In this document: piece after piece, positions 43,789 to 53,092 of the stretch
Layout: the number at the start of each line of letters is the position of its first letter
Numbering within the stretch: the stretch's first letter is position 1
DNA from: a virus
Taxonomy: Duplodnaviria > Heunggongvirae > Uroviricota > Caudoviricetes
Virus record (IMG/VR): IMGVR_UViG_2795385619_000008
Span: 14,166-78,165 of that record
Strand: one strand, 5' to 3'
Length of the DNA stretch: 64,000 nucleotides
Program-made: the position numbers and the translations under genes
The notes under the pieces: model-generated
Seen by the model: the letters and a program-made list of their open reading frames with translations, nothing else
Told to the model about the DNA's origin: nothing
The model's database searches: none

Positions 43789-44649
43789 ATGCCGCCCACA
43801 ATGTGGATCACCCTGATCCTGCTCATCATTGGTGCTGTTGCTTTGGTTGCGACACCGATGCTGCGTAAAGAAGATCGCCCAGCCTCCCTCCTAGTAACTG
43901 GAGTCGCGGGAGTGCTTGCGCTTGTTTTCGGCATCTTCGCCTCGATTACCACCGTTGGTACTCGCCAGATCGGTATCGAGACCACCTTTGGCCGACCCAA
44001 CGGATCGACACTGTCGAACGGCCTGCATTTCAAGGCTCCATGGGCGCAGGTCACTGAGATGGATGGTGCTATCCAGATTGACCAGCACAAGGGCGACAAC
44101 CGCGTGAAGGTTCGTCTTGGCAACTCGTCGACTGCTGACGCCGACGTTTCAGTCCGTTGGCAGATCAAGCAGGACGCCACCCCAGAACTGTTCGTGCAGT
44201 ACAAGACATTCGACAACGTACGAACCAACCTGGTTACCCGTAACCTGCAGGTTGCGCTGAACGAGGTGTTCGCGACGTTCGACCCTTTGGCACCAAAGAA
44301 TCTCGACAAGTCTCCACTGCCGGAACTATCGGAGCAGGCCCGCAAGATCCTTGCCGAAAAGGTGGGCACCCAAGTCGAAATCTTGGACGTAGCTGTCCCG
44401 ACGATCGACTACGACGAGGGCACGGAAGCCAAGATCAACCAGATCAACCAGGCTCGCGCCGCAACCTCGGTAGCCCTCCAGGATCAGCAGACCGCGCTGG
44501 CCCAAGCGGACGCTAACAAGAAGCTTGCCGACTCGGTGTCTCATGATCCCAACGTCCTTGTCTCCAAGTGCTTGGACATTGCTAAGGAGAGAGGCCTCGC
44601 GCTCCTCTGCTGGCCGACACCAGTCCTGCCAACCGTCCCCACCAAGTAG
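43789..44649 (+). CDS. SPFH/band-7 (prohibitin-like) membrane protein.
   Basis: N-terminal transmembrane segment and band-7 core. Confidence 0.65.
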   Translation: MPPTMWITLILLIIGAVALVATPMLRKEDRPASLLVTGVAGVLALVFGIFASITTVGTRQIGIETTFGRPNGSTLSNGLHFKAPWAQVTEMDGAIQIDQHKGDNRVKVRLGNSSTADADVSVRWQIKQDATPELFVQYKTFDNVRTNLVTRNLQVALNEVFATFDPLAPKNLDKSPLPELSEQARKILAEKVGTQVEILDVAVPTIDYDEGTEAKINQINQARAATSVALQDQQTALAQADANKKLADSVSHDPNVLVSKCLDIAKERGLALLCWPTPVLPTVPTK

Positions 44650-46227: not shown

Positions 46228-46298
46228 TCGGATGTGGTCCAGTGGCAGGACAGCGGCTTCCAAACCCGCCAACGGGAGTTCGATTCTCTCCATCCGGG
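46228..46298 (+). tRNA. tRNA-Trp (CCA).
   Basis: Hand-folded cloverleaf. Acceptor TCGGATG/CATCCGG, T-loop TTCGATT, anticodon loop TTCCAAA. Confidence 0.6.
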
Positions 46299-46353
46299 CA
46301 ATGCCTTTGTGTGGCATGACATTTGAAAACTCCATAGAGATAGTAGTTTCAAT

Positions 46354-46699
46354 GGGGCTGACAGGCATTCGATTGCGTGTCAACTTACTGAGAAGCGTGC
46401 CGGGAAGCAACGCCCGCAACAGTGCAACCTTGATAAGCGCAAACGCTCATCAGTCCGACTACGTCCTAGCGGCGTAGTCCGTTGGGGTACAACGGTTCAC
46501 CCGTTCCTTGTACCAATCCACCGTCGCCAATACGGGGAACCCTCTGGCTCACGCCGTCGCACAGAGGCTAAACGTGCTGCGGCAGAACCCTCGTATCAGG
46601 CTGCCCAGCCAAACCGGAGGTAAACGGTATAACAGGGATACGCACGTAGAAGGCAGTGAAGAGAAGCGCAAGACTGCGGTTCAATTCCGCACAGCTCCA
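46354..46699 (+). ncRNA. ssrA: tmRNA (SsrA) encoding the tag ANAHQSDYVLAA.
   Basis: 5-prime GGGGCTG pairs with 3-prime CAGCTCC-A. T-arm TGCGG-TTCAATT-CCGCA. Tag ORF GCA AAC GCT CAT CAG TCC GAC TAC GTC CTA GCG GCG TAG at 46439-46477. Confidence 0.8.
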
Positions 46700-46985
46700 C
46701 GAGAGGGAGGCCACCGGTTCGATCCTGGTCAGCTGGGGAGCGCCCTGGCTGTAGCTCAGTGGCAGAGCGCCCTCGTTAAACGACGCGTGGCCCCGGCTCG
46801 CATAACCAGAACCAAGTACGAGTAGCGCTCGGAACGGAGCGGTTCTTACGGGGAATGTGGAGAGACATCTCCGCGCGGCCATCGGGATGCCGATGGTCAT
46901 ATGGATGACAGGGTAATCCCGCAGTAGGTTCCGATAAAAAGGATCCGACCTGAGGTGCCGTACCTGGGCCGTGTCGTCCATTAAT

Positions 46986-47056
46986 CAGGCTGTAGTGAAA
47001 CGGGATCATGCCGGTTTTGGGTACCGGTGGTGGAGGTTCAATTCCTCCCAGCTTGA
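46986..47056 (+). tRNA. tRNA-Pro (TGG).
   Basis: Hand fold. Anticodon loop TTTGGGT. Confidence 0.6.
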
Positions 47057-47168
47057 CGAGAAGAGTTGTCGGTATATCTCCACGCGCAGGGAACCGTCCG
47101 TCTGATCGCGAACGATAGACGAAAATTCGCGCGCTACGCCCCCCTAGCGTCAACATGGTGGGCACCAT

Positions 47169-47241
47169 TGGCCTGTAGCTCAATTGGTAGAGCAGCGAGC
47201 TGTTAACTCGCGAGGTGTAGGTTCGACTCCTGCCAAGCCAG
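47169..47241 (+). tRNA. tRNA-Asn (GTT).
   Basis: TAGCTCAATTGGTAGAGC D-arm. Loop CTGTTAA. Confidence 0.65.
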
Positions 47242-47351
47242 CGTTGGAACGTGGTGCAAGCGTAGAGCAGCCAAGCGCGACGGCGAGTGGTGAGCACATC
47301 GGCAGTCGACGGTCGAAGATGCCAGGGAAAAGCTGTTCGTTCCTAACCAAT

Positions 47352-47428
47352 CTCGTCGCGAATAGGCGATCAACGCAGACTGTAAATCTGTTCCTTCGGG
47401 TGTGCAGGTTCGACTCCTGACGGCGAGA
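47352..47428 (+). tRNA. tRNA-Tyr (GTA).
   Basis: Loop CTGTAAA, long variable arm. Confidence 0.55.
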
Positions 47429-47507
47429 CAATGAGACTGGTGTGGAACGAACTGAAGGCTTGCGGCAAGCAGAAACGTTCCCCCGCCCGCAAGGCCAGTC
47501 TCAGCCT

Positions 47508-47580
47508 TGATGATTGGTGTAACCGGCAGCACACGTGGCTCTGAACCACGTAGGTCTTGGTTCGAATCCAGGGTCATCAG
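47508..47580 (+). tRNA. tRNA-Gln (CTG).
   Basis: Loop CTCTGAA. Confidence 0.55.
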
Positions 47581-47662
47581 CTTTTGGGTCAACCGGTAGG
47601 TACCTGCCATGAGTTGACTGTCCGGTGGCTCGCATGCCCTCCGTCACAGAAGCATGCCGCAT

Positions 47663-47747
47663 GGAAGGCTCCGCTGAATGGTCGGCAACCGGCGTCGAAT
47701 ACCGGGGCAGGCAGTGCGTCCTGGGGGTTCGAGTCCTCAGCTTTCCG
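47663..47747 (+). tRNA. tRNA-Ser (CGA).
   Basis: Long variable arm. Loop GTCGAAT. Confidence 0.45.
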
Positions 47748-47829
47748 CTCCTAAAGTCTTCCACCTGCCTGAATGGTGGCTAATCAGGTGTGCTCCAAGA
47801 TCGCGTGGACACGGCAACAGGTGGACCAA

Positions 47830-47913
47830 GGAGAGCGCAACTAGTTAGGTGACTAGGCCCGGTTGCTAACCGGATCGCTGCTCTGCAGTAGGTTTCGAAT
47901 ACCTGCCTCTCCA
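47830..47913 (+). tRNA. tRNA-Ser (GCT).
   Basis: Loop TTGCTAA, long variable arm. Confidence 0.55.
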
Positions 47914-48363
47914 CGCACCCACACGAACTCTGTTGTGGGAGATATAGTTAAGACATTCGGGGCATGGCCCATAAGCCACCGCAAGGTGGTGAAAGGTGGG
48001 GTGACAACCCACCACCCGCAAGGGCAATCCATGCAATCCAATCCTTGAGCAGTCAGTGATGGCTGCCAGGTCGTGAGTCTGCCCGTGACCGACGCCGAAT
48101 GTGGTGAGGTCAGCAGCCCGTATCGTGCGGGTGCTCCGTGGGAGTAATGCAGGGGACAGGACAAGCGGCCTGTGGAACGGAAGGAACTGAGTCCGAGCCT
48201 CGCAAGCAAGGGCGTGTTCCATGATCGATCTCGCGTCGGGCGACGGCTCGCAATGCGGTTGAGAGAGAGTGTAATTAGCCCCGCCAGGCGAAAGCACGAG
48301 AGGCGTGAAGCATTCTGTGCCACAAAAGGGTTCGGAACTTCATGGGGAAGCACGTCTTTGGTC

Positions 48364-48436
48364 AAACATCTAGCTCATTTGGTAGAGCATCTGTCGCATA
48401 AACAGTTGGTAGCCGGTTCAATTCCGGCGATGTATA
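48364..48436 (+). tRNA. tRNA-Met (CAT).
   Basis: TAGCTCATTTGGTAGAGC. Loop CGCATAA. Confidence 0.55.
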
Positions 48437-48729
48437 CAAGCAAAAGTCCTTCCCCTGCCGAGGAGCAAAAGCGCCTTAATCCCAGACCTTCGGGAATCTG
48501 GGCCGCACAATAGTCCCGCAAGGTGAGTGCGGTTTGTAGGCAAGTACTGCAGCAGTGAGACGGCCATCTCATCGCGAAGGGAAAGCCGCAGAGTAGCTTT
48601 CGGCATGACGAGTGGTTCACGGTAACGGACCAGGCGTGAGAACTAGGTCAGGGATGGCCTGGAGAAGCAGCGAATCAATAATGCTGCGAAAGGTTCTCGA
48701 TAGCGGGTGTACTCTCAGCCTCTAACAAT

Positions 48730-48803
48730 CGACTCTTAGCTCAGTTAGGTAAGAGCGACCGGTTGAAGCCCGGTGCGCCCCCGTTCGATTCGGGGAGAGT
48801 CGG
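48730..48803 (+). tRNA. tRNA-Phe (GAA).
   Basis: Perfect acceptor CGACTCT/AGAGTCG. Loop TTGAAGC. Confidence 0.65.
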
Positions 48804-48925
48804 CGTGTAAGGGAAACCAGGTTCCACAGCTACTGGTGAAAAGCTGGGCACTCCACGTAAAAGGTCGCGTTGACTCGCGCGGATACGGTAGGCGATGAAC
48901 TGTCCTACCGGAATGAGTCACTCAT

Positions 48926-49000
48926 AGCGGGTTAGAGAAGTTCGGCCATCTCGCGAGCCTCATAAGCTTGAGACCACCGGTTCAAATCCGGTACCCGCCA
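48926..49000 (+). tRNA. tRNA with anticodon CAT (Met, or Ile-lysidine). The 1:72 pair is mismatched.
   Basis: Loop CTCATAA. D-stem GAGA/TCTC. Confidence 0.55.
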
Positions 49001-49064
49001 CAGGGTCCGCTCGCCAGCAAGTCTGGTCCTGAAACCCACGGAGACGGTTAAAGAGTCGGGCAAT

Positions 49065-49139
49065 CCCGTTGTTGGGCAATGGAGCGCCCACCGCCCTACG
49101 AAGGCGCAACGCATGCAGGTTCGAATCCTGTCAACGGGT
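49065..49139 (+). tRNA. tRNA-Arg (ACG).
   Basis: Acceptor CCCGTTG/CAACGGG. Loop CTACGAA. Confidence 0.6.
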
Positions 49140-49203
49140 CTGAGCGCTGTCGGTACAAAGCCCGAACGAACAGAGATGCCATGCTGCTCTGGCCAGCGCC
49201 ATA

Positions 49204-49274
49204 CCTTGTGTAGCTCAATGGCAGAGCTCCTCGCTGTGACCGAGGTTATCGCGGTTCAACTCCGCGCATAGGGA
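49204..49274 (+). tRNA. tRNA-His (GTG).
   Basis: Loop CTGTGAC. Confidence 0.55.
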
Positions 49275-49297
49275 CGTACAGACACTGAAAGGCCAAG

Positions 49298-49462
49298 ATG
49301 ACTGACAAGCTGCGCACGGGTATCGCCCATATCGACATCGTCAAGGCGGTGAACGATCTGATCGATCGCATGGATGCTCTTGAGGGCTTCCATTACGCGG
49401 TGGATGAGAAGCCGGTGGCCAAGAAGGCTCCCGCAAAGAAGGTAGCCCCACCTGCAGAGTAG
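49298..49462 (+). CDS. Small basic protein (54 aa) embedded in the tRNA array.
   Basis: ATG preceded by GAAAGG. MTDKLRTGIAHIDIVKAV...KKAPAKKVAPPAE. Confidence 0.35.
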   Translation: MTDKLRTGIAHIDIVKAVNDLIDRMDALEGFHYAVDEKPVAKKAPAKKVAPPAE

Positions 49463-49471
49463 GTGGCATAA

Positions 49472-49543
49472 GGCGAAGTGAGTGAGTGGCTAGCTGGCAG
49501 GCTGCAACCCTGACCCACACCGGTTCGAATCCGGTCTTCGTCT
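49472..49543 (+). tRNA. tRNA-Cys (GCA).
   Basis: Loop CTGCAAC. Confidence 0.55.
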
Positions 49544-49613
49544 CCGACGCGCTCGATGGGGCTGGTGAGCCATCGTAAAGCCGACGCGTTAGACCATGAA
49601 ATATCGGCACCAT

Positions 49614-49688
49614 GCTCCGGTAGCCCAATTTGGCAGAGGCGACAGGCTTAGACCCTGGAGGTTGTGGGTTCGAATCCCTCTCGGAGTA
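49614..49688 (+). tRNA. tRNA with anticodon TAG (a Leu anticodon) but a short class-I variable arm.
   Basis: Loop CTTAGAC. Variable AGGTT. Discriminator A. Confidence 0.45.
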
Positions 49689-49757
49689 CTCGACGGGTGG
49701 CCCCCGTGAAAGGGCCTGCAGTACTTCGGTAAAGCTGCGTCATCAAACACCGAGCCT

Positions 49758-49832
49758 GGTCGGCTAGGCAAACCTGGCAAAGCCGCCGAGCTCAAACCTC
49801 GGTGTCTGCGAGTTCGATCCTCGCGCCGACTA
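49758..49832 (+). tRNA. tRNA with anticodon CAA (a Leu anticodon) but a short class-I variable arm.
   Basis: Loop CTCAAAC. Variable TGTCT. Discriminator A. Confidence 0.45.
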
Positions 49833-49833
49833 C

Positions 49834-50046
49834 GTGAACAAGTATCGCCTGACAGCTGCGGGGGTCTCATATCTTGCCTGGGGCAAGGAGCTCACCCCGG
49901 AAGGTGCTAGGGCCCTGGTTGAAGCAGAGTGCGGCGTTAGGGCCAGTGACTGTCAGCGATACCACCCAGAGCGCTCACGTGGGCGCGATGGATACAGGAA
50001 GGCGTACCCGCATGTGTGGGCAGCGTTTCCCGCGATCACAAGTTAA
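49834..50046 (+). CDS. Possible small protein gene within the tRNA array.
   Basis: GTG-start ORF of 70 aa between tRNAs. Confidence 0.25.
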   Translation: MNKYRLTAAGVSYLAWGKELTPEGARALVEAECGVRASDCQRYHPERSRGRDGYRKAYPHVWAAFPAITS

Positions 50047-50047
50047 T

Positions 50048-50118
50048 GGGCGTTGGTGAAACGGAATCACCCTAGACTTTTAATCTATGAGTTGAGGGTT
50101 CAAATCCCTTGCGCCCTA
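50048..50118 (+). tRNA. tRNA-Lys (TTT), imperfect acceptor.
   Basis: Loop CTTTTAA. Confidence 0.45.
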
Positions 50119-50119
50119 C

Positions 50120-50191
50120 GGGAGTATAGTTAAGCGGTTATAACTCTTGGCTCTTACCCATGAATCCCAGGTTCGATCCCTGGTGCTCCCA
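50120..50191 (+). tRNA. tRNA-Lys (CTT).
   Basis: Loop CTCTTAC. D-stem GTTA/TAAC. Confidence 0.55.
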
Positions 50192-50192
50192 C

Positions 50193-50264
50193 TAGCTCGT
50201 CGTCCAATGGTTAGGACACCGCTCTGATAAGGCGGAAACCAGTGTTCAACTCACTGCGGGCTTA
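50193..50264 (+). tRNA. tRNA-Ile (GAT).
   Basis: Loop CTGATAA. Confidence 0.5.
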
Positions 50265-50271
50265 CCAACTT

Positions 50272-50342
50272 ACGACTGTAACTCGGACAGACCAACGGCC
50301 TCCTAAGCCGCGTGGAAGCAGGTTCAACTCCTGTCGGTCGTG
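50272..50342 (+). tRNA. tRNA-Arg (CCT).
   Basis: Loop CTCCTAA. Confidence 0.5.
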
Positions 50343-50390
50343 CGCCAGTATGCATTTCGTACCCCTCGGGCCTACGTTCTGCATACTCAT

Positions 50391-50464
50391 GCGAGTGTGA
50401 TGTTTAACGGTTAGCATCTCTGTCTTCCAAACAGATCGTGCCAGTTCGAATCTGGTCACTCGTT
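50391..50464 (+). tRNA. tRNA-Gly (TCC).
   Basis: Loop CTTCCAA. Confidence 0.55.
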
Positions 50465-50590
50465 CGACGTCCTGGGATGGACGACCCTACGGTGGAGACT
50501 TCGGTTGTCGCCGGAAGCTTGTGCGCGGATAGAGCATCCGCCAGGGACCTCTCGCTGCAGCATTGGCACCCTCAACCAAAAGCTCGATAT

Positions 50591-50658
50591 GCCTGGTTAG
50601 TCTGGGACGAAAGCTGGCTTACATCCAGCCAAGCGGTGTTCGATTCACCGACTGGGTA
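50591..50658 (+). tRNA. tRNA-Val (TAC), short D-arm.
   Basis: Loop CTTACAT. Confidence 0.45.
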
Positions 50659-50663
50659 CGCAG

Positions 50664-50737
50664 GCCTCATTAGCTCATCCGGCTAGAGCACTTCCTTAGT
50701 AACGAAGAGGCGCGGGGTTCGAGACCTCGATGAGGCC
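50664..50737 (+). tRNA. tRNA-Thr (AGT).
   Basis: Perfect acceptor GCCTCAT/ATGAGGC. Loop TTAGTAA. Confidence 0.55.
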
Positions 50738-50976
50738 CGACGTTCAGTCTTTCTGCATGTTCAGCTTTGTTGAACAGCAGGGGGATTGAACACTTGGGGG
50801 CGCATGTTCCAAGGTGGCGACCGATCCTTGCAAGATTGGTGTGGTCGCGTTCAATTCGCACCGTCTCCACGGGAGTTTTGGCCAAGCAGCTCCAGGGTTT
50901 GATTCCCAGAAAGTTGGCTCAGGTTGTTCGTACCTGCCCCAGTGGCCTCGAAAACCGCTGGGGGTAAACGTCCTAA

Positions 50977-51049
50977 GCACGTGTAGCTCAATCGGGAGAG
51001 CGCCACCCTGTCAAGGTGGAGGCAGCGGGATCAAAACCCGCCACGGGCG
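50977..51049 (+). tRNA. tRNA-Asp (GTC) with a non-canonical T-loop ATCAAAA.
   Basis: Loop CTGTCAA. Confidence 0.55.
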
Positions 51050-51050
51050 C

Positions 51051-51389
51051 GTGAGTAGAGAACTAGTGCTGTCAGTGACCCTGAAGGATTGTCGTGTAGA
51101 CACATTCCGATCAGGTGGCAAGGGTGGCCAGAACCAGAACAAGCGCGAGACGGGTGTGCGGATTACGCACGAGCCATCTGGTGCGATTGGTGAGTCGCGC
51201 GAGGAGCGTAGTCAGCTTCAGAACAAGCAGGCTGCGTTTCGTCGAATGGCGGGCTCACCGAAGTTCCAGCTCTGGGTGAAGCGTCAAGTCGGTCGTGATG
51301 ACCTGCAGAAGGCCCAGGTGGAGCGCGATATGTGGCCGGTGAACCTCAAGACCGAGGTTCGCGAGTCCGGCAAATGGGTTGAGCAGTAA
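51051..51389 (+). CDS. GGQ-motif peptidyl-tRNA hydrolase domain protein (stand-alone class-I release-factor catalytic domain, ArfB/PrfH-like).
   Basis: DCRVDTFRSGGKGGQNQNKRETGVRITHEPSGAIGESREERSQLQNKQ matches release-factor domain 3. GTG start 2 nt after tRNA-Asp. Confidence 0.65.
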   Translation: MSRELVLSVTLKDCRVDTFRSGGKGGQNQNKRETGVRITHEPSGAIGESREERSQLQNKQAAFRRMAGSPKFQLWVKRQVGRDDLQKAQVERDMWPVNLKTEVRESGKWVEQ

Positions 51390-51430
51390 CCCGTTCGATG
51401 TTCGGTATTGACCGCACAGCGAACACTCAA

Positions 51431-51501
51431 GGTCCATTGGTGTAGTGAGAGCACACCACCCTCTCAAGGTGTTGGTGCGGGTTTGATTCCCGCATGGACT
51501 A
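51431..51501 (+). tRNA. tRNA-Glu (CTC).
   Basis: Loop CTCTCAA. T-loop TTTGATT. Confidence 0.55.
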
Positions 51502-51505
51502 CTCG

Positions 51506-51988: not shown

Positions 51989-52082
51989 AGCGCCTGGACG
52001 ATTGGGCCTGGTACGTGTCACTCGCCATGGGTGGGTTCGTGATCATCCTGGTCCTGCTCTTCCCGGTTCTGATGGAGCTGAG

Positions 52083-52619
52083 GTGGGGGCATTGAGCGAG
52101 GCTGACCGCGTGAGTCGCCGTGTGCTTGTCACTGGTAGCCGCGACTGGCCGGACCCGAAGCCGGTTATCTACGCCCTCAACAGCCAGTGGCTCAAGGCGC
52201 ACAAGAAGGGCGAGAAGCTCGTTGTTGTGCAAGGGGAGTGTCCCAAGGGTGCTGATCTCTTCGCTGCCGAGTGGGCCCAGTTCCGCGAGGATCGCGGTTG
52301 CCGCGTCAAGAATGAGTCGCATCCCGCAGATTGGGATCGCGACTGTGACTACCACTGCACCCATCCACCTCGGTGGAAGTGGGGTAAGCCGTACTGTCCG
52401 CTCGCTGGACATCTACGCAACCAGGCGATGGTGGACCTTGGCGCTGACATCTGCATTGCATTCCCACTGAAGGACTCTCGGGGTACTTGGGACTGCATGA
52501 AGCGCGCTAAGAAGGCTGGAATCTCCGTCATCAACTTCGGGTACGACGGGCCCCTGTGCGCTCCCTGGATCGACTATCACATTGATCCACATACAGGTCC
52601 GTGTGCACGTGCCCGCTGA
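52083..52619 (+). CDS. Rossmann-fold SLOG/DUF2493-like (DprA/Smf-related) protein with a C-terminal Cys/His cluster.
   Basis: RVLVTGSRDW...VVVQGECPKGADLFAAEWA. GTG start. Confidence 0.45.
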   Translation: MGALSEADRVSRRVLVTGSRDWPDPKPVIYALNSQWLKAHKKGEKLVVVQGECPKGADLFAAEWAQFREDRGCRVKNESHPADWDRDCDYHCTHPPRWKWGKPYCPLAGHLRNQAMVDLGADICIAFPLKDSRGTWDCMKRAKKAGISVINFGYDGPLCAPWIDYHIDPHTGPCARAR

Positions 52620-52738: not shown

Positions 52739-53092
52739 ATGAGTGAACTGAAGCAAATGATTGTCATGCGTAAGGATCTCGGCATGCGTGCCGGGAAGAT
52801 GGTTTCACAAGGTGCTCACGCCTCTCTGGGTGCCGTTCTCGAGTACCGCGATGACCCACGGGTGGTTGAGTGGCTCGCCGGTTCGTTCACGAAGGTCTGT
52901 GTGCGGGTGGAGAGCGAAGACGCACTGATTGACCTCTGGGGCAAGGCAATTAAAGCCAACCTCCCAAACGCGCTGATTACGGATAACGGTAAGACCGAAT
53001 TCCATGGCATCTTGACCACTACGTGCTGCGCTATCGGCCCCGCAACGGCTGAAGAGCTTGCACCGATCACGGGGGCGTTGAAGCTTCTATGA
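52739..53092 (+). CDS. pth2: Peptidyl-tRNA hydrolase, Pth2 family.
   Basis: MIVMRKDLGMRAGKMVSQGAHAS signature, 117 aa. Confidence 0.7.
   Translation: MSELKQMIVMRKDLGMRAGKMVSQGAHASLGAVLEYRDDPRVVEWLAGSFTKVCVRVESEDALIDLWGKAIKANLPNALITDNGKTEFHGILTTTCCAIGPATAEELAPITGALKLL

Follow-up and report, generated by a model that had tools for sequence, protein, structure and literature searches.

We have analyzed a 64,000 nt stretch of DNA of a mycobacteriophage (Caudoviricetes), referred to here as the window. A tmRNA gene is followed in it, on the plus strand, by a permuted tRNA-like element (46703-46781), which begins 3 nt downstream of the tmRNA discriminator. A structured region, here called domain W, extends from there to a tRNA-Pro gene. 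The features of the locus are the following:

43789-44649, plus strand: gene for a Band-7/SPFH protein (Pfam PF01145, E = 7e-20), 2 kb upstream of the element
46354-46699, plus strand: tmRNA, with tag ANAHQSDYVLAA-stop (ARAGORN; Rfam RF00023, 101.7 bits)
46700-46702, plus strand: 3 nt spacer CGA (direct reading)
46703-46707, plus strand: 5' strand of the closing stem, GAGGG, approximately tRNA positions 39-43, which pairs with 46770-46774
46708-46712, plus strand: variable loop AGGCC, 4-5 nt among copies
46713-46729, plus strand: T arm ACCGG-TTCGATC-CTGGT (stem 46713-17, loop 46718-24, stem 46725-29), 98.8% paired
46730-46751, plus strand: closed acceptor arm CAGCTGG(GG)-AGCG-(CC)CTGGCTG, a 9-bp hairpin (MFE folds and alignment)
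46752-46769, plus strand: U8-A9, D arm GCTC-AGTGGCA-GAGC and G26, with conserved contacts
46770-46774, plus strand: 3' strand of the closing stem, CCCTC, approximately tRNA positions 27-31 (covarying alignment)
46775-46790, plus strand: single-stranded tail and linker GTTAAAC-GACGCGTGG, where GTTAAAC is 46775-81
46791-46985, plus strand: domain W, structured (consensus fold), which extends to tRNA-Pro
46986-47057, plus strand: tRNA-Pro(tgg) (ARAGORN, Rfam)

The element contains, in this order, the 3' strand of the anticodon (AC) stem, the variable loop, the T arm, the 3' strand of the acceptor, a short loop, the 5' strand of the acceptor, the D arm, the 5' strand of the AC stem and GTTAAAC. 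An initial annotation had proposed that a 3' tRNA half precedes a 5' half, and direct reading of the window agrees with this layout to the base. ARAGORN and Rfam give no tRNA call (RF00005) within 46700-46985, as expected from the permuted order. The acceptor arm consists of CAGCTGG (46730-36), GGAGCGCC (46737-44) and CTGGCTG (46745-51). The stretch between the two halves had been described as a spacer: its sequence was correctly given, but it is not free, since a GG/CC pair lengthens the acceptor to the 9-bp hairpin with an AGCG cap, CAGCTGGGG-AGCG-CCCTGGCTG in MFE folds. It is followed by TA (46752-53), by the D arm, made up of GCTC (46754-57), AGTGGCA (46758-64) and GAGC (46765-68), and by G (46769).

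The boundaries of the element also have recurrent features. CAGCTCCA, the 3' strand of the tmRNA acceptor plus the discriminator (last base A46699 according to ARAGORN), precedes all the verified copies located after a tmRNA or a tRNA-Ala (11/11). In most copies the spacer reads C-N-A (CGA, CTA, CCA), a near-CCA sequence. The tail has 5-8 nt, depending on the copy, and a TAA or TAG is usually present in it. No terminator was found between the tmRNA and the element.

We have compared 16 distinct copies, found in cluster-M mycobacteriophages, M. abscessus prophages and two unrelated viral contigs. The initial annotation had suggested a search for the same arrangement in relatives: They keep the permuted order, with no intact tRNA in its place, and the permuted cloverleaf is retained in all 16 copies. 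MAFFT placed the variable-loop gaps wrongly, and its alignment was replaced by a hand-curated, sequence-verified, N-padded gapless alignment. In the 16 copies 96.1% of the cells are paired, as compared with 64.6 ± 2.0 when shuffled and 35-46% in slid registers. Compensatory double changes are found at 17 of the 21 pairs, a count for which a second, independent script was also run, and they are present in all four helices. The closing stem is 100% paired, with double changes at each of its five pairs. Nucleotides involved in tRNA tertiary contacts are conserved as well: the T loop is TTCGANY in 11 copies and TTCRANY over all 16, T is present at position 8 in 15 of 16, A14 is conserved and the GG corresponding to G18G19 appears in the D loop of 10 out of 11 copies.

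A strict descriptor of the structure (T arm, acceptor of 5 bp, D arm and closing stem of 5 bp) gives 18 full-score matches in 4.3 Mb of real sequence and none in three shuffled replicates. In the window there is a single full-score match, 46703-46774, compared with none in 40 window shuffles. A chance origin of the fold can be excluded. The isolated element has a folding z of +0.39, so that single-sequence thermodynamics is not distinguishing: the support for the element is comparative, as it comes from aligned sequences. A relaxed version of the descriptor was swamped by noise and has been discarded.

These data also bear on a group of readings in which the element is a rearrangement scar, as had been suggested initially, a pseudo-tRNA, two tRNA fragments joined by chance or a second tmRNA gene, of the permuted (two-piece) kind. 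The tmRNA locus is part of a recombination-prone array with HNH endonucleases, and there is a weak Rfam tmRNA_permuted match of about 20 bits at 46672-46722. Nevertheless, the compensatory changes in four helices of the 16 copies refute a scar, and independent copies exist in unrelated contigs. The tmRNA match (RF04321, 20.2 bits against a cutoff of 47) covers model positions 33-105, T-arm positions only. Domain W has no conserved tag-like ORF: its indels are not multiples of three and its stems covary. We consider the probability of all these readings to be negligible.

The copies differ in their acceptor arm. Window-type copies and those located after a tRNA-Asn have acceptor helices of 7-9 bp stacked on the 5-bp T stem. 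In Bongo-type copies and in contig L043 the acceptor loop is replaced by a conserved insertion of about 60-65 nt; here the acceptor helix has only 5 bp and is followed by a covarying two-hairpin structure. The L043 copy was found with the pattern CAGCTCCAC-N13-17-GGTTCGA over viral and genome contigs, which is too unspecific when used alone, after filtering for a preceding T arm.

When the two halves are put in the usual order, ARAGORN calls a tRNA in 15 of 15 de-permuted copies (of 16, L059 being left out). For the window copy the call is tRNA-Leu(taa), in agreement with the anticodon that the initial annotation had given for the reassembled halves. Anticodons are mostly of the Leu type (taa in nine copies, tag in two, caa in one), the 7 nt window tail GUUAAAC has both U33 and A37, the L043 tail stops exactly at the 5' end of a tRNA-Pro, and ARAGORN finds no tRNA-Leu(taa) in the array. 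RtcB is encoded beside the array in some relatives: a true RtcB gene is present in prophiGD54-2 and in one Bongo-like contig. All this would fit a genuine permuted tRNA-Leu(UAA) gene, whose anticodon-loop ends would be ligated, for instance by RtcB, and whose circle would be opened by RNase P and RNase Z into a decoding tRNA. Nevertheless, we find such a gene highly improbable. Tails of 5, 6, 7 or 8 nt are found, and either U33 or a purine at 37 is missing in Rey (GAUAGAC), T49-2 (GUUAGUC), the Rey post-Asn copy (GCCAACU) and L059 (CGCGA). Joining of the ends adds the 2-4 nt spacer and gives loops of 9-11 nt. The acceptor arm is closed, and in insertion-type copies it has 5 bp with the conserved, covarying two-hairpin structure. 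The discriminator is G or C, is not conserved and is not A73, which bacterial LeuRS requires, and the body is class I. UUA accounts for 0.8% of Leu codons, and the termini have no BHB-like motif.

The ligation step deserves a separate comment. Ends produced by RNase P and RNase Z (3'-OH, 5'-P) are not RtcB substrates. Only a 33-aa remnant of RtcB is found in the window: the gene has been deleted in the present phage and in T49-2-like phages, which still keep the element. Because of this deletion there is no conserved ligation pathway, and the link of the element to a ligase is not obligatory.

The Leu anticodons are not evidence of selection. Leu is retained in three of the four substitutions inferred, but it would also be retained in two of the three transitions that can start from UAA, and such a transition bias accounts for the abundance of Leu anticodons. 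Another reading that we have rejected is a group I intron within a tRNA-Leu(UAA): intron models give no match at E <= 10, and a 3' exon is missing downstream. After de-permutation, the element does not reproduce any of the tRNAs of the array, its best match being tRNA-Asn with 74% identity.

Other forms of the same idea are very unlikely as well. A true phage permuted tRNA gene might give a ligase-sealed circle for decoding, or a tRNA related to stop codons or Leu, with ends generated by tmRNA 3' processing and by a cut after GUUAAAC, and with a ligase that might be RtcB, from the phage or the host, or an enzyme of the Rnl type. Alternatively, a chargeable two-piece variant, nicked by RNase P and provided with CCA, might enter the ribosome alongside tmRNA and the RF-1-domain rescue factors. 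The element is probably not a decoding tRNA. The permuted or split tRNA gene of the initial annotation has a genuine counterpart in the permuted tRNA-shaped fold, while a decoding or split gene is unlikely.

A better parallel is provided by YrlA, one of the bacterial Y RNAs. In the window copy, the T arm, the acceptor hairpin and the D arm are all aligned with the Rfam YrlA model (RF02553; 21.6 bits, model positions 23-87, cmscan), and other cluster-M copies reach 27-44 bits. Ro60-linked phage YrlAs have similar values (Bxz1 32.5, L258 35, L262 33 and 31 bits), and the classical YrlA of L259 scores 59.8 bits; all these scores, including those of genuine Ro60-linked phage YrlAs, are below the gathering cutoff of 69 bits. 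R1, a covariance model trained with the elements, finds the Bxz1 YrlA, which is outside its training set, at 41.4 bits, but junctions of adjacent ordinary tRNAs (L059) score 45-48 bits with this model, so scores alone are not proof of homology. The R1 score does not discriminate by itself and is used as supporting evidence only; both covariance model and Rfam scores come largely from T-loop and D-arm sequence. Other features point in the same direction. The element shares with classical YrlAs a GTTA placed straight after the closing stem, and a single pattern (D arm, 6 nt, GTTA) recovers cluster-M copies and classical YrlAs alike. No normal tRNA carries the full signature ending in GTTAAAC. 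In L259, the classical YrlA is located 1 nt downstream of a tRNA.

YrlA Y RNAs have been reported in 22 bacteriophages (PMC4201824), and they have been likened to circularly permuted tRNAs with closed acceptor stems (10.1101/312249). The initial opinion that such an arrangement is unprecedented in phages does not hold, as the element matches the YrlA module. The explanation we favor, to which we give somewhat more than an even chance, is that the element is a non-decoding tRNA mimic of the YrlA type, which lacks the basal stem that binds Ro60 (Rsr).

A classical Y RNA, bound by the Ro60 (Rsr) of the host, would account for the YrlA-like module and its 3' GUUA signature, and M. smegmatis does encode Rsr (PMC4201824). 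On the other hand, the Ro60 motif GNCGAAN0-1G is absent within 400 nt on either side of the element (46300-47000, both strands), while it is found in the positive controls: GCCGAGAG and GCCGAAGG in Bxz1, GGCGAATG in L259. A YrlA would be expected to have a Ro60/TROVE gene on its strand within about 4 kb. Leaving aside the tape-measure ORF, we have found no TROVE domain in the six largest ORFs of the window, and no TROVE gene is annotated in prophiGD54-2 between 30 and 79 kb; the controls do have such a gene, namely Bxz1 gp220 and the TROVE ORF beside the YrlA matches of L262. The alignment of cmscan proposes an outer stem which overlaps the T arm of the tmRNA, whose sequence is different in relatives. 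Since the element begins 3 nt after the tmRNA, a basal stem has no 5' strand. A classical Y RNA is extremely improbable here.

On its 3' side the element runs into domain W. As modelled, the element is the 5' module of a structured RNA of about 285 nt, formed by this module and domain W. The consensus fold of domain W has 46 pairs, eight of them with compensatory changes in the alignment, and includes an enclosing helix (CCCCG/CGGGG), a multibranch 3' part and the hairpins GUGGAGA-GACA-UCUCCGC and GGCCAUCGG-GAUG-CCGAUGGUC. The domain contains an invariant 25-mer, whose exact sequence gave no match in genome contigs, and none of the Rfam families matches domain W.

The element might be a 5' cap, with a role in structure or processing, for larger RNAs embedded in the array, such as domain W or the GOLLD 5' region of Rey-type phages, with no decoy role: its tRNA fold would insulate neighbors, recruit tRNA maturation or modification enzymes or sit on an RNA assembly. 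Several facts suggest this. Rey, MrMagoo, Aziz and Reindeer have a copy with a short acceptor after tRNA-Asn, which runs into a region of about 345-410 nt ahead of the Rfam GOLLD core. In the window, the GOLLD 5' region begins with GTTAAGACATTCGGGGCATGGCCC, and a T-arm/acceptor remnant lies just before it. The motifs GGAGAG-GACATCTCC and TGCCGTAC are common to domain W and this GOLLD 5' region, and tRNAs are carried in GOLLD linkers (PMC12286853). However, the elements of L043 and L059 stand alone between two tRNAs, without a downstream domain, MrMagoo has a post-tmRNA downstream domain without the element, and the tail is unpaired in the consensus fold of domain W. We consider a cap rather unlikely.

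The genes around the element suggest what a YrlA-type mimic might do. The tRNA array and the tmRNA form an island with genes for the Band-7 protein and, also encoded in the window, an RF-1-domain protein and PTH2, to which relatives add RtcB. A Band-7 gene on the same strand is what RtcB/Band-7 systems of RNA repair would lead one to expect (10.1101/312249, citing Burroughs & Aravind 2016), and YrlA or b7a-tRNA has been predicted beside Band-7 and RtcB (10.1101/312249). The element would be transcribed together with the tmRNA/tRNA array, and its unit would be bounded by the tRNA processing of its neighbors, upstream by the maturation of the 3' end of the tmRNA and downstream by a cut of RNase P at the 5' end of tRNA-Pro. 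The parts of a tRNA which form the L shape (T arm, D arm, acceptor helix and a 5-bp "anticodon" stem) would assemble in permuted order, with a loop closing the acceptor end and an open anticodon end, as in an inside-out tRNA. Such a tRNA-shaped elbow may serve as a handle or decoy for factors that recognize tRNAs in this translation-protection and RNA-repair island. It might, for example, compete with the substrates of anticodon nucleases as a mimic that cannot be cleaved, or be a repair cofactor. A role as decoy against an anticodon nuclease has already been suggested (PMC7790460).

By analogy with M. smegmatis YrlA, an RNA with 7 bp in its acceptor stem that RNase P cleaves and that acquires CCA in vivo (PMC4201824; 10.1101/312249), the acceptor hairpin of 7-9 bp in window-type copies may be nicked by RNase P and CCA-tailed. 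RNase P would cut on the 5' side of CTGGCTG (46745), the two pieces would stay paired, and the upstream piece would be trimmed and CCA-tailed as in the M. smegmatis RNA. This two-piece tRNA-like RNA is compatible with the explanation we favor, and we regard it as unlikely. It would fit the 7-9-bp acceptor helices on a 5-bp T stem of window-type and post-Asn copies, the cleavage and CCA addition of a YrlA with a 7-bp acceptor (PMC4201824), and the mycobacterial hosts. However, insertion-type copies have only 5 bp ahead of the junction, the discriminator and next bases are not conserved, and no C is encoded for CCA.

These results provide a well-studied group of phages of interest for phage therapy, the cluster M mycobacteriophages and M. 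abscessus prophages, with an RNA gene that had not been annotated and that covaries strongly. If our explanation is correct, a YrlA-type tRNA mimic occurs without Ro60, which separates the function of the module from Ro60 binding. The mimic is fused to other structured RNAs, including in some phages the 5' side of GOLLD, and is embedded in tRNA/tmRNA arrays beside translation-rescue and RNA-repair genes. The M. smegmatis phages Bongo, Rey and Reindeer offer a genetically tractable system to study tRNA-shaped decoys during infection, for example as a protection against tRNA-targeting defence nucleases. There is also a warning for annotation: a "half-tRNA" found beside a tRNA or a tmRNA gene can be part of a permuted mimic that has a function.

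The element may be compared with several known systems. The permuted tRNA genes of Cyanidioschyzon merolae and Thermofilum pendens have the same order (3' half, intervening sequence, 5' half), and their de-permuted sequences are also recognized as tRNAs. These genes have a terminal BHB which is cut by the splicing endonuclease, and the ligated circle is opened to give a decoding tRNA. In contrast, the element has no BHB and no conserved loop length or discriminator, its acceptor insertion is structured and conserved, and its bacterial host has no splicing endonuclease. In the two-piece tmRNA (RF04321) an acceptor/T-arm piece also comes before the 5' acceptor piece, and the element adjoins a tmRNA, but it has no tag frame and presents a closed acceptor arm, a full D arm and an anticodon-like stem. 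The mascRNA of MALAT1 is likewise a tRNA-shaped module, located where two RNAs of a single precursor meet. It is not permuted, however, and its RNase P site sets the 3' end of the upstream RNA, while that of the element would lie inside the module. The b7a-tRNA is also a tRNA-shaped ncRNA found near a Band-7 gene and, as in relatives of the present phage, RtcB; its description likens it to an authentic, non-permuted tRNA.

YrlA, especially as found in mycobacteria (M. smegmatis) and mycobacteriophages (Bxz1/ET08), is the closest in our opinion. The element differs in having no GNCGAAN0-1G site, no basal stem joining its 5' and 3' ends and no nearby Ro60/TROVE gene, and in its surroundings: its 5' end adjoins a tmRNA and its 3' side runs into a different structured domain of about 200 nt. 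Both share the permuted tRNA topology, with an acceptor stem-loop that is closed and varies in length, T and D arms like those of a tRNA, in which the bases for tertiary contacts are conserved, and a short "anticodon" stem followed by GUUA. Both are found in mycobacteriophages, can adjoin the 3' end of a tRNA and may be genetically associated with RtcB/Band-7 RNA repair.

The element at 46703-46781 (+) is a conserved tRNA-shaped permuted module, with the same orientation as the tmRNA and tRNAs around it. It is found at the beginning of an array of 20 tRNAs (46228-51502), which also holds a tmRNA and a GOLLD RNA with an embedded tRNA. The window is from a mycobacteriophage resembling those of cluster M or from an M. 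abscessus prophage (Vilmaviridae/Mclasvirinae); its nearest records are prophiGD54-2, prophiT49-2 and prophi86-1. The tmRNA discriminator is 46699 (ARAGORN; Rfam tmRNA 101.7 bits), and direct reading of the window agrees exactly, segment by segment, with the initial annotation.

Segments of the element (+ strand)
3 nt between the tmRNA discriminator and GAGGG: spacer CGA
46703-07: GAGGG, closing stem
46708-12: AGGCC
46713-29: T arm, ACCGG-TTCGATC-CTGGT
46730-36: CAGCTGG, acceptor
46737-44: GGAGCGCC
46745-51: CTGGCTG, acceptor
46752-53: TA
46754-68: D arm, GCTC-AGTGGCA-GAGC
46769: G
46770-74: CCCTC, closing stem
46775-81: GTTAAAC, tail

The spacer between the two halves has the sequence which had been described, but it is not free: GG and CC lengthen the acceptor to a 9-bp hairpin with an AGCG cap. 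The element is therefore closed at its acceptor end and open at its anticodon end. Neither ARAGORN nor the Rfam tRNA model makes a call at this position, and the thermodynamics of the single sequence are uninformative (z = +0.39). Our own script, a strict structural descriptor (T arm, 5-bp acceptor, D arm and 5-bp closing stem), gives a single full-score match in the window, 46703-46774, and 18 in the 4.3 Mb of fetched sequence; none is found in three shuffled replicates of the latter or in 40 window shuffles.

Relatives present the same permuted arrangement at this position with different stem sequences, and none has an intact tRNA there. We have segmented 11 distinct copies by hand, verifying each string in its source sequence; all 11 are directly preceded by CAGCTCCA. 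With five further copies they form a gapless, N-padded alignment of 16 sequences, in which 96.1% of the cells are standard pairs, versus 64.6 +/- 2.0 after column shuffling and 35-46% when partners are moved by 1-3 columns. Covariation scores 0.871 (0.246 shuffled, at most 0.184 in slid registers), with double-sided changes in 17 of the 21 pairs. In the closing "anticodon" stem pairing reaches 100% and all five pairs show double changes; its variants include GAGGG/CCCTC, GAGGA/TCCTC, GCCGG/CCGGC, GGCCT/GGGCC, AGCCC/GGGCT and GCGGG/CCCGC. The tRNA-elbow bases are conserved in the 11-copy set: T loop TTCGANY, U8 and A14, with the D-loop GG in 10 copies. Covariation and conserved elbow bases refute the rearrangement scar which the initial annotation had considered. 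A pseudo-tRNA is ruled out on the same grounds.

Reassembly into a tRNA with anticodon TAA, as originally suggested, formally works. ARAGORN calls all 15 de-permuted copies tRNAs (taa in nine, tag in two, caa and tac in one each, abnormal loops in two). Nevertheless, a permuted gene for a decoding tRNA is very improbable. The tail varies from 5 to 8 nt, several copies lack U33 or a purine at 37, and with the 2-4-nt spacer included a sealed loop would grow to 9-11 nt. In place of A73 the discriminator is G or C, and the acceptor arm is closed, often with a covarying insertion. UUA represents 0.8% of Leu codons (5/592, in 15 confident ORFs). Transition bias, starting from UAA, would produce the apparent excess of Leu anticodons. 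RtcB could not ligate the ends left by RNase P and RNase Z, and it is absent from the window phage as well as other element carriers. A true RtcB ligase is encoded right after the array in prophiGD54-2 and in a Bongo-like contig (L233, 35037-36362); in the window it is deleted, leaving a 33-aa remnant (first 33 codons, 52002-52100) fused upstream of a YspA/SLOG-domain ORF.

A tRNA-Tyr(gta)-like gene of the array (47352-47429) has an odd D arm and needs the relaxed ARAGORN setting -ps80 to be called; a syntenic tRNA-Tyr is annotated in relatives. tRNA-Leu(tag) and tRNA-Leu(caa) (49614-49689 and 49758-49833) have A73 and only 76 nt each, so that they lack a long variable arm. An orphan T-arm-like hairpin, GCAGG-TTCAACT-CCTGT (50308-50345), belongs to no called tRNA; it lies in the 123 nt that separate tRNA-Ile from tRNA-Gly.

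The element is found in two forms. In the short-acceptor form the acceptor is a 7-9-bp hairpin; copies 3' of the tmRNA are found in the window, prophiGD54-2, T49-2-like phages and two other fetched sequences (L004 and L007). The insertion form has a 5-bp acceptor helix followed by an insertion of about 60-65 nt, which itself folds into two conserved hairpins, 12 of whose 25 pairs have compensatory changes; this form is found 3' of the tmRNA in Bongo, Reindeer, Nanosmite, Rey and prophi86-1, and also in L043. Rey, MrMagoo, Aziz and Reindeer have a second, paralogous short-acceptor copy directly 3' of tRNA-Asn. Two unrelated viral contigs contain independent copies. In L043 (151 kb) a tRNA-Ala with a tmRNA-like acceptor and a tRNA-Pro flank the copy, whose tail GTTAAAC stops exactly at the 5' end of tRNA-Pro and whose MFE fold gives the permuted cloverleaf perfectly (z = -3.2). 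In L059 (77 kb, 36 tRNAs) it lies between tRNA-Asp and tRNA-Arg, with the tail CGCGA.

The sequence 3' of the module is modular, it differs by phage type. Window-type phages have domain W there (46791-46985, about 200 nt), which fills the stretch up to tRNA-Pro. It is a structured RNA, self-contained and partly covarying, with an invariant 25-mer, TACGGGGAATGTGGAGAGACATCTC, and no matching Rfam family. Its consensus fold has 46 pairs, eight of them with compensatory changes, and leaves the module tail unpaired. Bongo-type phages have a different domain, which MrMagoo keeps without the element. The post-Asn copy of Rey-type phages leads into a region of about 345-410 nt ahead of the Rfam GOLLD core; this region shares the motifs GGAGAG-GACATCTCC and TGCCGTAC with domain W. 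In the window, the less conserved GOLLD 5' region apparently begins near 47945 with GTTAAGACATTCGGGGCATGGCCC, preceded by a T-arm/acceptor-hairpin remnant without D arm (about 47880-47940), at a position where Rey, MrMagoo, Aziz and Reindeer have a complete permuted module. As an alternative, the element might mainly be a structural or processing cap for such larger RNAs (domain W, GOLLD).

tRNA-Met(cat), 48364-48437, is embedded in the linker of the window GOLLD. The syntenic tRNAs of relatives L003 (3684-3757), L006 (4622-4693) and L233 (32268-32339), likewise embedded in the GOLLD linker, are called with a two-base anticodon, "(tg)", a sign of an abnormal anticodon loop. Weak, recurrent matches to Rfam wcaG RNA (L010 1977-2086, L011 1975-2054, L013 1926-2032) span the insertion-type element's 3' part and the next CGGTTTCC...GGTGGAAAC domain; they score 25-28 bits where the cutoff is 42 (E = 0.15-1) and are unlikely to be significant.

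Genes for translation rescue and RNA repair are numerous at this locus. Upstream of the array are genes for a dual-specificity phosphatase, for an HNH endonuclease and for a Band-7/SPFH protein, and the YspA/SLOG protein is also among those encoded inside or after it.

Other features of the locus
43789-44649: Band-7/SPFH protein, upstream of the array
47945-48721: GOLLD RNA including 5' region (Rfam match 48298-48721)
51051-51389: RF-1-domain (GGQ) protein, 112 aa, without codon-recognition domains, inside the array
52739-53092: PTH2-type peptidyl-tRNA hydrolase, just 3' of the array

The RF-1-domain protein, PTH2 and the tmRNA form a ribosome-rescue gene set. There is a promoter-like site before the tmRNA and a strong terminator before tRNA-Trp, with no terminator between tmRNA and element, which is apparently co-transcribed with the tmRNA and tRNAs. 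Maturation of the neighbouring RNAs would define its ends, through formation of the tmRNA 3' end on one side and RNase P cleavage at tRNA-Pro on the other. The element would act through its tRNA elbow, as a handle or decoy for tRNA-recognising factors. The tRNA-like domain in YrlA has been suggested to be an anticodon-nuclease decoy (PMC7790460); such a role fits the element, since it has no closed anticodon loop and anticodon-loop cleavage cannot inactivate it. For tRNA-like RNAs beside Band-7 and RtcB, a passage in 10.1101/312249, citing Burroughs & Aravind 2016, predicts an aid to RNA ligation.

The topology of the element is that described for the tRNA-like domain in bacterial Y RNAs of the YrlA type (Y RNA-like A, RF02553), whose acceptor stem differs in length among species; in M. 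smegmatis YrlA this stem is of 7 bp, and the RNA is RNase P-cleaved and CCA-tailed in vivo (PMC4201824; bioRxiv 10.1101/312249). By likeness, the element may also be RNase P-nicked and CCA-tailed. The Rfam YrlA model aligns its T arm, acceptor hairpin and D arm (21.6 bits, E = 0.065) and gives 27-44 bits with other cluster-M copies, all below the gathering cutoff of 69 bits. Genuine Ro60-linked phage YrlAs, our positive controls, also fall below it: Bxz1, upstream of the Ro60-like gp220 (32.5 bits), two tandem copies adjoining a TROVE ORF in L262 (33 and 31), L258 (35) and L259 (59.8). A covariance model of the element detects the Bxz1 YrlA at 41.4 bits, but reaches 45-48 bits where ordinary tRNAs adjoin each other in L059, the "dimeric tRNA" artefact which PMC4201824 mentions. 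Both kinds of score are thus supportive only; it is stem complementarity that discriminates.

In 2.9 million viral contigs, the element-derived pattern TAGCTCAGT-N0-2-GGCAGAGC-N6-GTTA matches only cluster-M copies and control YrlAs, besides two ordinary tRNAs and one unclassified match; the narrower GGCAGAGC-N6-GTTAAAC is absent from ordinary tRNAs. Bxz1 YrlA has ...GAGC-G-CTT-AAACGCCGGTGG where the window element has ...GAGC-G-CCCTC-GTTAAACGACGCGTGG, and the classical YrlA of L259 lies 1 nt 3' of a tRNA, the same abutting arrangement. On the other hand, the element lacks the Ro60 parts which define YrlA. The motif GNCGAAN0-1G, present in the controls, is not found within +/-400 nt; there is no room for the basal stem, since the element begins 3 nt after the tmRNA, and no TROVE/Ro60 protein is found among the ORFs tested. 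As a probable YrlA-type permuted tRNA mimic, the element is of a kind already known, also from phages, so the arrangement is not, as had been supposed, unprecedented in phages. This variant appears to be undescribed in the literature examined, although an earlier mention is possible. It is Ro60-independent, lies directly against a tmRNA or tRNA within phage tRNA arrays, is joined to other structured RNAs and exists in two forms.
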